64,000 nt of DNA from a virus (IMGVR_UViG_3300042908_000680:1-64000); one strand, 5' to 3'. Counted from the stretch's first letter, positions 26,566 to 32,932 are shown. The notes: generated by a model not told the origin, from the letters alone. Translations and numbers: made by a program.

Positions 26566-26626
26566 TTGGCACGAAAAACGCGGCCCGCCCCGTTGTTGCT
26601 AAATCCTTGAGAGATAAGGACTTACG
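26566..26626. repeat. variant element 5: TTGGCACG box + GC spacer + single palindrome (26598-26626)
   Basis: TTGGCACGAAAAACGCGGCCCGCCCCGTTGTT-GCTAAATCCTT-GAGAGAT-AAGGACTTACG. Confidence 0.8.
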
Positions 26627-26635
26627 AAAAGATAA

Positions 26636-26709
26636 CGAGAATGACGGGACTTGAACCCGCAACCTCTAGCGTGACAGGCTAGCGATCTAACCAATTGATC
26701 TACATTCCC
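26636..26709 (-). tRNA. tRNA-Asp (GTC)
   Basis: Cloverleaf; loop CTGTCAC. Confidence 0.92.
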
Positions 26710-26713
26710 AAAA

Positions 26714-26785
26714 TGACCCCACAGGGAATCGAACCCTGATTCTCGGAGCGAAAATCCGATTTCCTAACCGTTAGAAGATGGGGCC
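26714..26785 (-). tRNA. tRNA-Glu (TTC)
   Basis: Cloverleaf; loop TTTTCGC. Confidence 0.88.
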
Positions 26786-26788
26786 AAG

Positions 26789-26860
26789 CTGGCAAAACAG
26801 GATTCGAACCTATAACCTAGCGGTTAACAGCCGCTTGCACTACCGTTGTGCTATTTGCCA
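26789..26860 (-). tRNA. tRNA-Asn (GTT)
   Basis: Cloverleaf; loop CTGTTAA. Confidence 0.9.
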
Positions 26861-26863
26861 ATA

Positions 26864-26934
26864 TTTCGGGACTACGATTCGAACGTAGAAAGACTGATCC
26901 AAAGTCAGTCGTGATACCGTTTCACCATCCCGAA
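26864..26934 (-). tRNA. tRNA-Gln (TTG)
   Basis: Cloverleaf; loop CTTTGGA. Confidence 0.88.
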
Positions 26935-26935
26935 G

Positions 26936-27007
26936 AGCCGACAACAGGACTTGAACCTGTAACCTACTGATTACAAATCAGTGGCTCTACCATTGAGCTA
27001 TGTCGGC
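26936..27007 (-). tRNA. tRNA-Thr (TGT)
   Basis: Cloverleaf; loop TTTGTAA. Confidence 0.92.
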
Positions 27008-27224
27008 CACCACCGCAACTCAACCGTCAGCCTCCGAACCATAAATATTGTACCATTCACCACTATCATCTACTACGATAATCTCCTCATCATATACGAT
27101 AAGATCATCATACTCTTCAGTATCGTAAGGGCCGCACCATTTCATGACATTTTCGTTGTACATAGTATTTAGGGGTTAAAGGAATGGTTTTATCTATTAT
27201 ACTGTATACACACCAAAAAGTCAA

Positions 27225-27298
27225 TGAGTCATGTAGGATTCGAACCTACGACCAACGGATTAAAAGTCCGATGCTCTAACCAACTGAGCTAATGACCC
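27225..27298 (-). tRNA. tRNA-Lys (TTT)
   Basis: Cloverleaf; loop CTTTTAA. Confidence 0.92.
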
Positions 27299-27308
27299 CC
27301 GCGAATCA

Positions 27309-27536
27309 TCAAGTCAAATCTTCATCATTATCCTCAATATCGTCAGTAATATCTTCCGCAATGTTATTGATATACTCTAAATACTCTTTATCAGAATGGC
27401 TCTCTAACCATTGATCCATTAGTTCTCCCGCCATAATATCCTGCAAATACAGGGTAATATCTTCGGGCCACTCATGGAATGGCTTCTTAATAGCGTCCTT
27501 GATTTCCTTACTGGTGTATATTCCGAATATGTTCAT
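27309..27536 (-). CDS. small acidic protein
   Basis: D/E-rich C-terminus. Confidence 0.55.
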   Translation of the reverse strand: MNIFGIYTSKEIKDAIKKPFHEWPEDITLYLQDIMAGELMDQWLESHSDKEYLEYINNIAEDITDDIEDNDEDLT

Positions 27537-27582
27537 TTCTTCCCTTATAATGTTATCGGTTACTGACTCTTAATAGTTTACT

Positions 27583-27759
27583 CTAAAATGGTAGGTCTGT
27601 CAAGTCATACTCTCGCTGACTATCCCCACAGCATCGATCTTCATTCTTTGGGAGAGACTCTCCCCCGCATTTTGCCTGCCTTTTGTATTCTTCCCATTCC
27701 TCCCAAACTACCAAATCTGCCGTTTCCTCACAATGTACCCAATCATCCCATTTTGACAT
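27583..27759 (-). CDS. small acidic protein
   Basis: MSKWDDW start with AAGGAG RBS embedded in a lone palindrome site (27762-27790). Confidence 0.5.
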   Translation of the reverse strand: MSKWDDWVHCEETADLVVWEEWEEYKRQAKCGGESLPKNEDRCCGDSQREYDLTDLPF

Positions 27760-27837
27760 GGTGTAACTCCTTGTACTGTAACGACTTAAGTATCCTAGCA
27801 TATTATCGGCTTTTGTCAAGCCTGACTTTAAACTTTC

Positions 27838-27919
27838 TCTAAGTCTATATATATCAACACTTTACATCAAATCCGGCCCGCCCGCCTAGCCCTAACTCCT
27901 TTGCCCATAAGGACTTAGG
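27838..27919. repeat. palindrome-doublet element 6
   Basis: Sites 27838-27866 and 27891-27919; spacer TCAAATCCGGCCCGCCCGCCTAGC. Confidence 0.85.
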
Positions 27920-27941
27920 AGAAGGGTCTAGGCAGTGTACA

Positions 27942-30783: not shown

Positions 30784-30865
30784 CCTAAGTCCTTATGCTA
30801 TAAGGGTTTACGTCAAATCTGGGGGGCCGGATTCGCCCTAAGTCCTTTGGTAGTAAGGGTTTAGG
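30784..30865. repeat. palindrome-doublet element 8 (spacer inverted)
   Basis: CCTAAGTCCTT-ATGCTAT-AAGGGTTTACG / 24 bp / CCTAAGTCCTT-TGGTAGT-AAGGGTTTAGG. Confidence 0.9.
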
Positions 30866-30876
30866 TCAAATCCTAG

Positions 30877-30916
30877 GGCAAACCGTGTGCCATTCGCGCT
30901 TGGCACGGGATTTGCT
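30877..30916. promoter_or_regulatory. back-to-back sigma54-type boxes (minus 30877-30893; plus 30900-30916)
   Basis: ATGGCACACGGTTTGCC (minus) and TTGGCACGGGATTTGCT (plus). Confidence 0.55.
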
Positions 30917-31100
30917 ACGCGAAATACTGCTCTCCCCAAAAGTCCTCATCATACCCCTCTTCCTCATCTTCCTCATCTTCACCGGGAACACCGTAACCTA
31001 CCAAAAATACCTCACCCTCTTCGTTTGCCATTTCTTCCCAGCCCTTGTAGATATCCTCTTCGTTGATTTCGCTCATATCGTATACAAAGTCGTTGGTCAT
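30915..31100 (-). CDS. highly acidic small protein
   Basis: EDEEDEEEGYDEDF; promoter at 31131-31159. Confidence 0.6.
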   Translation of the reverse strand: MTNDFVYDMSEINEEDIYKGWEEMANEEGEVFLVGYGVPGEDEEDEEEGYDEDFWGEQYFA

Positions 31101-31339
31101 TTTCTTTTTCCTTTTGAAGTGATGAAATGGATTCTACAGTATCTTATCGGCAGAGTCAAGAGCGATTCTTGAAATATTCTTGGATTCTTTTTTCGTCCCT
31201 ATGATTCTCAAAAACCGTCACAACCTCAACATAAAAAACATAGACCAAAGCACCGATAAAAATCATTCCGATCATTTTCTTTTCCTTTCCCTTATATCGA
31301 CATTATACAGACTTTTCTTGAATCGTCAAGAGGATATTT

Positions 31340-31531
31340 TTACGATTTTTCGATTTCGTTTTCCGAAACTAGCATCGTATCACCAGCACTATAGGCAAAC
31401 CTTGAACCCTTGAAAGATACGCTATGGTCTAGCCTCAGTTCAAAGATTCCACGATTGGTGCATTCTCTTACGATATATCCAGAAACCTTTTTGGTTTCAT
31501 ATGCTGATCGAACGTTGCAAATCACTTTCAT
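31340..31531 (-). CDS. small SH3-like hypothetical protein
   Basis: AAGGA RBS; promoter at 31559-31586. Confidence 0.55.
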   Translation of the reverse strand: MKVICNVRSAYETKKVSGYIVRECTNRGIFELRLDHSVSFKGSRFAYSAGDTMLVSENEIEKS

Positions 31532-31622
31532 TTCTCTTTCCTTTTCTCTTATATCGACATTATACCAGAAAATCTTTAGCCGTCAATACTGTACAAATGT
31601 TTTTTCAAGATATTTTTATGCT

Positions 31623-31639
31623 AGCAAATACCATGCCAA
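31623..31639 (-). promoter_or_regulatory. sigma54-type -24/-12 box
   Basis: TTGGCATGGTATTTGCT. Confidence 0.55.
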
Positions 31640-31688
31640 AGATATTTTATTCCCTTAAACACCTCATCGATACGATGTCCTCATTAGC

Positions 31689-31770
31689 CGTAAGTCTATA
31701 TACAGTAAGGGTTTACGTCAAACGCGGCCCGCCCGATTTGCCCTAAGTCCTTATAGGGTAAGGGTTTACG
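31689..31770. repeat. palindrome-doublet element 9
   Basis: Sites 31689-31717 and 31742-31770; spacer TCAAACGCGGCCCGCCCGATTTGC. Confidence 0.9.
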
Positions 31771-31895
31771 TTCAATCTTCTACAGTCATACAGATGTACA
31801 GTAGTCCAACGTACACGCATACGAATACTAGAATGGGCATTCTATTGTCTCCCTATTGTGGGGGGTGCTTACCGGTTTAGATTAGATAGTACGCT

Positions 31896-32111
31896 CTAGG
31901 CTGCGTGAATGAACACCCGTTCACTCTTGGTCTGATTCGTGATGGTTACGATCCAGTTGCGACCACTACCATCCTCACGCATGACAGCATTGATAAGGCC
32001 AGCATATACCCTACCCTTCGGGTCGATCACACTGGTATACTTACCAGCGATCATAGATGCGAAGATAGTGTTGAGGTTATTCTTACGGACAGCGTATGCA
32101 GTGCCAAACAT
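31896..32111 (-). CDS. hypothetical phage protein (REDGSG motif)
   Basis: Own promoter at 32148-32176. Confidence 0.6.
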   Translation of the reverse strand: MFGTAYAVRKNNLNTIFASMIAGKYTSVIDPKGRVYAGLINAVMREDGSGRNWIVTITNQTKSERVFIHAA

Positions 32112-32172
32112 TTTCTTTTTCTTTCTTAGGGTTGGATAACTGTGGATATTATATCTATCGTCTATCTATTTG

Positions 32173-32301
32173 TCAAGCGTTCATGAATCGTTCGGCCTCA
32201 GTCGAACTATTGAAAGAGCCTAGAAGCCTACGCTTACCATTGCCCATATCCTTGTATACCTTGTATTTCTTTCCTACTACGATCAGCACAAGCGTTGTCA
32301 T
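32173..32301 (-). CDS. 42-aa micro-protein (paralog of 30003-30131)
   Basis: MTTLVLIVVGKKYKVY...; own promoter at 32330-32358. Confidence 0.6.
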   Translation of the reverse strand: MTTLVLIVVGKKYKVYKDMGNGKRRLLGSFNSSTEAERFMNA

Positions 32302-32377
32302 TTTCTTTTCCTTCTCTTTCTTTTGCTCTATTATATACATCGGCTTTCGCCGTGTCAAGCCTATAGAAAATATTTTT

Positions 32378-32542
32378 TCAGTTATTGGAAGCGGGAAGCC
32401 TACGAACGATATAAACCCTGCAACCATCCTCACCATCCCATTTATCGAAAGCGGCAGTATTGGCCGCATCCTCACTAGTGAAAGGGCCGATGAAGTCTAG
32501 TTCACAATCCCAAGCGTCTACGATTTGAGCGAAGTATGTCAT
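32378..32542 (-). CDS. small hypothetical protein
   Basis: Own promoter at 32571-32599. Confidence 0.55.
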   Translation of the reverse strand: MTYFAQIVDAWDCELDFIGPFTSEDAANTAAFDKWDGEDGCRVYIVRRLPASNN

Positions 32543-32602
32543 TTTCTTTTCTCTTTCTTTCTTTCTCTCTATTATATCTATCGTCTTTTCCCGTGTCAAG
32601 CC

Positions 32603-32797
32603 TCAAGCAAAAAGATTTTCGGAAGTTTGAGTCATCATGTCAACGTACATGCTACGGTATCCAATACCTTCATTCCGCGAACTATCTTCAATCATGATTC
32701 GGATCATTTCACGACCCTTGACCATTTTCTTTTCTACAATGAAGCCCGTATAAGTCTTGCCATTGTAGGTTGTCTTGATTTCAGTGTTGATTGTCAT
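32603..32797 (-). CDS. small hypothetical protein
   Basis: Own promoter at 32829-32856. Confidence 0.55.
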   Translation of the reverse strand: MTINTEIKTTYNGKTYTGFIVEKKMVKGREMIRIMIEDSSRNEGIGYRSMYVDMMTQTSENLFA

Positions 32798-32915
32798 TTT
32801 TCTTTCTCTCTTTCTTTCTTATGCTCTTATTATACCATACTTATCGGCCATGTCAAGTGGCAATCTAAAATATTTTTGAATATAATCTTGTGCCAAAGCA
32901 AGAAATATTCTCTAG

Positions 32916-32932
32916 AGCAAATGCTGTGCCAA
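32916..32932 (-). promoter_or_regulatory. sigma54-type -24/-12 box
   Basis: TTGGCACAGCATTTGCT. Confidence 0.55.

Follow-up and report, generated by a model that had tools for sequence, protein, structure and literature searches.

The viral record IMGVR_UViG_3300042908_000680 comes from an uncultured lake phage (149,498 bases, 36% G+C, completeness estimated at 94%), and its first 64 kb, the stretch analysed here and called the window below, carries a compact cluster of boxes of the -24/-12 type recognised by the bacterial sigma factor sigma-54 (RpoN). The reading that we favour, at slightly better than even odds (about 0.55), is that these boxes are host sigma-54 sites placed around an array of short dyads, that one of them (box 1) would form an enhancer-dependent promoter together with a linker and the dyads, and that two others (boxes 5 and 6) would add gated starts. 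The evidence lies in the motif, its enrichment, its pattern of conservation and its geometry. Binding of the boxes by the host sigma-54 holoenzyme we put at about three chances in four; both half-sites, the one-turn spacing and the flanking preferences match, and the scores reach the level of validated sites, which makes this holoenzyme the most likely binder.

Six exact matches to TGGCAY-N5-TTGC are present in the window, all within 2.4 kb and each where an earlier reading of the DNA by itself (the sequence-only reading) had placed it. Dinucleotide shuffles of the window contain 0.24 matches on average, and none of 100 shuffles gave six. The entire genome holds seven matches, the sole additional one being at 136275. 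As the boxes should not be scored by a motif derived from themselves, the scoring matrix was built from 16 intergenic sigma-54 sites of Salmonella supported by chromatin immunoprecipitation (PMC3844500, Table 3). On this matrix the six boxes reach 16.6-22.7 bits, compared with 17.0-23.5 bits for the training sites. A scan against background with such a matrix had been proposed as a check in the sequence-only reading; it finds five sites of at least 18 bits in the whole genome, where first-order Markov simulations give 0.15 (never more than two in any of 100 runs), and all five fall at 30.5-32.9 kb. The boxes, with two weaker variants and distances in nucleotides (nt), are as follows.

26567..26581, plus strand: variant box TGGCACGAAAAACGC, in place of the left palindrome of a doublet element; below 12 bits
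28909..28923, plus strand: variant box TGGCACGAAAATCGC, with the right palindrome 16 nt behind it; below 12 bits
30539..30553, minus strand: box 1, TGGCACGGTAGTTGC; 22.7 bits; sole-promoter position, predicted start near 30527
30757..30771, plus strand: box 2, TGGCACAGCCTTTGC; 16.6 bits; divergent twin of box 1, predicted start near 30783
30878..30892, minus strand: box 3, TGGCACACGGTTTGC; 18.0 bits; back to back with box 4 and aimed at a doublet element
30901..30915, plus strand: box 4, TGGCACGGGATTTGC; 18.2 bits; antisense to the gene at 30915-31100, whose stop codon its last base overlaps
31624..31638, minus strand: box 5, TGGCATGGTATTTGC; 19.0 bits; 37 nt upstream of a sigma-70 promoter at 31586-31559 (gene 31340-31531)
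32917..32931, minus strand: box 6, TGGCACAGCATTTGC; 22.3 bits; 60 nt upstream of a consensus sigma-70 promoter at 32856-32829 (gene 32603-32797)

In all six boxes the gap from GG to GC is exactly 10 bases within TGGCAC-N5-TTGCW, while the two variants match in spacing only. The count of about eight boxes in the sequence-only reading can thus be kept for the six strong ones, and its two weaker boxes, near 26566 and 28908, are unsupported by the matrix. These variants were described correctly in other respects: both retain GG-N10-GC and substitute the left palindrome of a repeat element (family D3), and they are kept in relatives. One more sequence of this kind, TGGCACTGCATACGC at 32092-32106 on the minus strand, scores below 12 bits and is retained in close relatives; it overlaps the first codons of the gene at 31896-32111 and may simply be coding sequence.

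The strongest of the boxes, box 1, stands in a setting that resembles a complete promoter module. Between the divergent boxes 1 and 2, which are 218 bp apart, lie three exact copies of GTAGCATTTTGC, and these are the only exact copies in the whole genome. Two of the three extend (AAC) to an imperfect 6-3-6 dyad, GTAGCA-TTT-TGCAAC. The parts of the module, apart from the boxes, are these.

30626..30704, plus strand: enhancer-like array, three copies of GTAGCATTTTGC starting at 30626, 30646 and 30690
30554..30625, no strand: linker from box 1 to the array; A/T tracts read from the sequence, among them a T9 run at 30565-30573
30358..30504, minus strand: first gene behind box 1, encoding 48 amino acids (aa) that match no known family
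30192..30353, minus strand: second gene behind box 1, encoding 53 aa with the motif DDGYDYSRDNR

If transcription begins 12 nt past the GC of a box, the three dyads are centred some 106, 126 and 170 bp upstream of the start predicted for box 1, and some 86, 130 and 150 bp upstream of the one predicted for box 2. Since activator sites usually occupy the region 80-150 bp upstream of sigma-54 promoters (PMC3844500), most of the dyad positions here are in the expected range; dyad sites upstream of the promoter, as enhancer dependence calls for, can thus be recognised on sequence evidence. A/T tracts are found in both linkers, from the array to box 1 and from the array to box 2, and the one between box 1 and the array likely forms an intrinsic bend that would substitute for a site of integration host factor (IHF). 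A terminator-like hairpin followed by T runs lies at 30721-30741 on the plus strand, just upstream of box 2, with no gene to its left on that strand; it may instead belong to the bent linker. On the other side of box 1, the predicted start falls at the G/C of GCATAAG, within the GCATAAGAAAG leader where the neighbouring sigma-70 cassettes should start, and the start codon follows 34 nt past the box. As a sigma-70 promoter box 1 is poor, while its neighbours match 11-12 of 12 positions: an alternative in which TTGGCA serves as the -35 element was rejected, there being no acceptable -10 element at 16-18 nt.

The same module recurs in related phages. A search of viral contigs for two GTAGCATTTTGC repeats 5-14 nt apart returned 51 contigs, or 37 distinct modules once duplicates were removed. 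A minus-strand box in the position of box 1 is present in 34 of the 37, 62-87 nt from the array and mostly at 72 or 86-87 nt; a plus-strand box in the position of box 2 is found in 13, 55-169 nt from the array start (mostly 123-135) and with varying spacers. The dyads are unchanged despite differing flanks, and a T-rich tract comparable to that of the box 1 linker occurs in all module variants. Among 31 distinct orthologues of box 1, TGGCAC and GC carry 1.5-2.0 bits per position and five or six spacer positions 0.2-1.1 bits. GC (and GG) is invariant, and the -12 element is TTGC, GTGC, CTGC, ATGC or TCGC, the last being the form also seen in the variant box at 28909..28923. A fixed core around a free spacer is what one expects where sigma-54 reads the site; a hairpin or a simple repeat would not leave this signature. 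Together with the enrichment and the matrix scores, this bears out the RpoN-type identity that had been proposed for the boxes.

Beyond the box the relatives share a conserved AT-rich stretch, the leader GCATAAGAAAGAGAGAG and a start codon that mostly follows 34 nt after the box. What comes next differs: the first gene behind the cassette encodes a zinc-ribbon peptide (SDCCG...CGEHCE) in nine modules, a MENLIVLNT protein in nine and a DDGYDY protein, homologous to the 53-aa protein of the source phage, in four, besides several singletons. Since different phages have different first genes, the cassette appears to be a portable promoter-leader unit. The zinc-ribbon peptides (40-59 aa, four cysteines in the pattern SDCCG...C..CGEHCE) and the MENLIVLNT proteins (76 aa) have no known function. 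Complete relatives carry from one or two up to 12 strict boxes, nearly all within a few kb of the early block.

A rather distant phage offers further support. Contig L093 has 56% G+C and a single gene, DUF932-like, in common with the source phage; in it the dyads adjoin a consensus box, TGGCACGGGGGTTGCAT, which is followed by a ribosome-binding site and a start codon. Because only the dyads were used to find this contig, the neighbouring box speaks for a functional connection of the dyads with the sigma-54 site. The GTAGCATTTTGC dyads of L093 (positions 6480-6760, one dyad inverted) lie upstream of the box, with GC-rich tandem repeats of about 47 bp to their left.

Given that array, linker, leader position and the 34-nt spacing are all conserved, box 1 with its array and linker looks like a true enhancer-dependent promoter, a reading that would explain every conserved feature of the box. 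In the mechanism that we propose, a host AAA+ activator would bind the GTAGCATTTTGC dyads, loop across the bent linker and open the closed complex waiting at box 1, and transcription would start near 30527 and enter the small early genes at 30504-30358 and 30353-30192. Box 2 would be the divergent partner of box 1, and boxes 5 and 6 would each add an activator-gated start upstream of a constitutive sigma-70 promoter. By such means a subset of early genes could be tied to a physiological signal of the host, the remaining early region staying on sigma-70.

The proposed module has much in common with bacterial sigma-54 promoters such as glnAp2 (activated by NtrC) and pspA (activated by PspF): GG and GC are ten bases apart within the extended consensus TGGCAC-N5-TTGC, and dyad sites lie about 80-170 bp upstream with bent DNA between. 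A divergent promoter pair around one enhancer also has its counterparts, in hypA-hycA and zraP-zraS. The bacterial promoters differ in that the present element sits on a virulent-type phage without an activator gene, that extra boxes occur in pairs and arrays, some of them docked on palindromes, and that one cassette stands before different genes. We know of no activator site that matches the dyad GTAGCA-N3-TGCWAC.

The other boxes are less uniform in their placement. Judged by the distance from the predicted start to a gene, box 1 fits a promoter and boxes 2, 3 and 4 do not; boxes 5 and 6 each precede a sigma-70 promoter. Boxes 5 and 6, which sit in paralogous segments (family D9, 78% identical), are plausible as tandem activator-gated promoters. 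In the family as a whole, 141 non-redundant boxes were collected from the relatives' loci and oriented by the array. Co-oriented with the early genes are 84 of them: 38 are followed by a leader and an ATG at 26-67 nt, 19 by a sigma-70 promoter (in many cases 37 or 60 nt away, the distances of boxes 5 and 6) and two by a palindromic element, while 13 are members of box pairs and 12 are followed by nothing recognisable. The remaining 57 (about 40%) face the opposite way, and here 29 are followed within 60 nt, and mostly after 12-16 nt, by a palindromic border element, 17 belong to box pairs, two precede a sigma-70 promoter and nine precede nothing recognisable. In most of the boxes docked to an element, the predicted start falls on the first base of the palindrome. 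The pairs come in three geometries: face to face, with about 5 bp between the -12 ends; back to back, the -24 ends being 8 bp apart (boxes 3 and 4 are such a pair); and in tandem at 28 nt. A role of the pairs as hairpin terminators was rejected: as the two arms lack complementary spacers, each pair consists of two copies of the motif and not of a selected hairpin.

In the window, this docking is seen most clearly at one element.

30784..30871, no strand: palindromic doublet ('element 8'), flanked by the converging boxes 2 and 3, 12 nt on each side

The sequence-only reading had already noticed two boxes converging on this element, as is indeed the case, and the predicted box 2 start coincides with the first base of the doublet. 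When folded as RNA, the two strands of element 8 do about equally well, and the other palindromic elements are not significant against shuffles. A role as RNA structures was rejected on this absence of strand-specific folding and on wobble positions that are inconsistent with any one strand; the palindromic elements are more likely DNA sites. A search of 26-33.5 kb for RNA families returned transfer RNAs (tRNAs) only.

The way in which boxes 2, 3 and 4 and the two variants pair, or dock at a fixed distance to palindromic elements, suggests something other than a plain promoter role. These could be backward-facing switchable promoters, or silent closed complexes that act as roadblocks or sinks. 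The sequence-only reading had left open whether the phage uses sigma-54 transcription or keeps the boxes as decoys and roadblocks. Its promoter option agrees with the geometry of box 1 and, as tandem promoters, plausibly with boxes 5 and 6; boxes 2, 3 and 4 are not placed as promoters should be. Likewise, its suggestion of a non-promoter role for the misdirected boxes gains from the many family boxes that face away or pair, although the role itself is only a possible one.

Taken further, these observations lead to the strongest of the alternatives, which we nevertheless consider unlikely as an account of the cluster. It holds that most boxes are docking sites of the holoenzyme and not promoters, at which silent closed complexes would serve as roadblocks or insulators at cassette borders, or that the replicating genome would soak up scarce host sigma-54 and so blunt the sigma-54-dependent responses of the host. 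Sigma-54 closed complexes are stable without an activator (PMC3844500), which favours this idea, as do the anti-oriented boxes with their 29 docked palindromes, the 30 boxes in face-to-face, back-to-back or 28-nt tandem pairs, and a box number that varies among relatives as it might for a dosage element. There is also a bacterial parallel, since Salmonella and E. coli have many strong intragenic or antisense holoenzyme sites that do not head genes, for which interference, antisense RNA and holoenzyme reservoirs have been proposed as roles (PMC3844500, PMC4591121). Those sites, however, are dispersed over the chromosomes; the phage boxes are crowded into non-coding DNA of about 2.4 kb and keep fixed offsets from other elements. 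Docking leaves unexplained the enhancer-like array at a fixed distance, the conserved leader and the 34 nt between box and ATG; a stop of transcription at the boxes is so far a supposition, and the sink version relies on sigma-54 copy numbers from model bacteria only. It should be added that docking at most boxes is compatible with a promoter at box 1.

Several points weigh against host sigma-54 promoters and should be set beside the evidence above. The phage has no match to Sigma54_DBD, no match to the activator ATPase models PF00158 and PF14532 even at E = 1, and no GAFTGA or activator-type Walker A motif in any of the six frames; its single AAA-type match is a RecA-like protein. In 47 related records (six of them at least 90% complete) no activator domain was found beyond one marginal hit. 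With no activator in the phage or in these relatives, the host would have to supply it, and the key partner is therefore hypothetical, as is an rpoN gene in the host; the absence of an activator also speaks for docking. In addition, the 57 family boxes that face away from the early genes fit poorly, the 30 of 141 in convergent, divergent or tandem pairs cannot all initiate, and a sigma-54 start in front of a consensus sigma-70 promoter, as proposed for boxes 5 and 6, brings no obvious benefit.

The attempts to find the host can be described briefly. Nucleotide searches of the cultured-phage collection gave no match to the source phage, and its large terminase is only 23-28% identical to proteins of Bacillus and Microcystis phages. 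A related 141-kb phage genome (L160, RFTN01000003.1, also G005:C90) is filed within G005, a metagenome-assembled genome (MAG) labelled 'bacterium', whose RpoB gives no clear phylum. MAG G005 was rejected as a host: neither it nor 40 other genomes of its order (0.5-1.3 Mb) has a match to Sigma54_DBD, and the phage contig in it is probably a binning artefact. A second candidate link, the flagged provirus G057, was also set aside, as both of its ends carry phage genes and no host sequence flanks them. Among bacterial records, just two contain the double dyad (a related phage contig and a Planctomycetales prophage), which reveals no host regulon; the single dyad occurs in eight of 301 Planctomycetota genomes, in one copy each and at about the level of chance, except in the prophage-bearing MAG.

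That prophage bears on the next explanation, which we regard as improbable: proteins of the phage itself would bind both boxes and dyads, the triple dyad being origin iterons and the boxes being operators or promoters of a phage sigma factor (34125-34649). The same dyad, GGTAGCATTTTGCTACC, is found five times inside an HTH_36 initiator-like gene of the Planctomycetales prophage, the strand switch and the GC-skew minimum lie at a distance of about 2.5 kb from the array, the repeats are bordered by AT-rich tracts, and the phage does encode a sigma-70-family protein. Yet it has no homologue of the prophage initiator; its best HTH_36 hit (E = 0.06) does not reach the cut-off of the family and is read against the direction of the early genes. 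The half-sites, 5 nt apart, have the geometry of sigma-54 and not the 16-18 nt of sigma-70-family promoters, no common -10 element is found at the right distance, a chance match of eleven consensus positions in more than 140 sites is implausible, and the dyads accompany a sigma-54 box in the very different phage L093. The prophage gene (L161:6743-7774, minus strand, MAG contig DAOVLV010000001.1) carries about five repeats of the GGTAGCATTTTGCTACC type, some imperfect, in an iteron-in-gene layout like that of lambda O, and the prophage-like region around it includes an integrase, a gpA-type terminase and a methylase. Finally, it is very improbable that the cluster is a functionless by-product of duplicated cassettes or of chance, as the paralogous segments of boxes 5 and 6 might suggest, since spacers differ between copies while cores are kept, the enrichment over shuffles exceeds 20-fold, and conservation of the layout in 51 contigs with 141 non-redundant boxes contradicts it.

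Leftward genes, small and mostly of unassigned function, run from the start of the record to about 33 kb, in a block that includes tRNA and transfer-messenger RNA (tmRNA) genes, and rightward genes begin at about 33.2 kb; the boxes therefore occupy the last 2.5 kb of the leftward early block. In front of most genes of this leftward block stand a near-perfect sigma-70 promoter (TTGACA-N16/17-TATAAT) and a purine-rich leader. The rightward genes begin with a sigma-70-family protein, followed by sugar-modification, terminase and tail genes.

34125-34649, plus strand: sigma-70-family protein of 174 aa (Sigma70_r2, E = 1e-7), near the head of the rightward operon; probably a late sigma factor

A relative (L205) has a sigma-70-family gene at the equivalent place (L205:3001-3633). 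The window also holds ten tRNA genes and, at 4159-4507 on the minus strand, a tmRNA with the tag GETRFALAA; the related phage contig L198 carries a tmRNA with the tag GVNQLALAA. Part of the early block, 16000-32000, has 42-44% G+C, compared with 32-39% for most of the remaining window.

The use of sigma-54 by phages had been called rarely described in the sequence-only reading, and we agree: the only published precedent that we found is the Pseudomonas phage YuA. Host sigma-54 is reported to be required for its development (Ceyssens et al. 2008, as described in PMC5053324), and one sigma-54-like promoter is reported as confirmed by cappable-seq (bioRxiv 10.1101/2023.10.13.562163). Like the phage studied here, YuA is a tailed phage without an RNA polymerase of its own; it draws on host sigma-54 as well as sigma-70, as the present phage would. 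Three fragments with active '-24/-12' promoters are marked in its GenBank record (NC_010116); they all belong to the structural region, run in the direction of its genes and, on the Salmonella matrix, contain no site of at least 14 bits, whereas on the same uniform background five of the six present boxes reach 15.3-21.2 bits. YuA has experimental support, while the present boxes are known from sequence alone; on the other hand, the boxes here are found at early genes, densely clustered and bidirectional, with an enhancer-like array and in a portable cassette. The rpoN-dependent phage resistance of Salmonella (PMC8744999) was considered as another precedent and rejected, being an indirect metabolic and RpoS effect.

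Among bacterial transcription routes, that of sigma-54 alone remains off until an ATPase activator has answered a signal. If phages do assemble complete sigma-54 enhancer-promoter cassettes, the physiological state of the host would be read directly in the choice of early genes, a form of host sensing that is barely documented in virulent-type phages (one cultured case, YuA, with much weaker sites). A bolder version, which we find doubtful, would make sigma-54 closed complexes a programmable layer over the early cassettes: one enhancer gated by a host activator, forward promoters for small takeover genes, and, answering to the same activator, backward promoters or releasable roadblocks docked 12-16 nt from border palindromes. 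In that case a stress or nutrient signal of the host would rewire or shut down early transcription, and the multiplying sites might drain sigma-54 from phage-shock or RNA-repair operons. The paired and antisense boxes raise a separate question, that of a structural use of silent closed complexes. The cassette is portable and widespread in lake viromes, and if the proposed reading is true, its presence would mark hosts that have sigma-54, and compact, tightly-off promoter parts could be derived from it.

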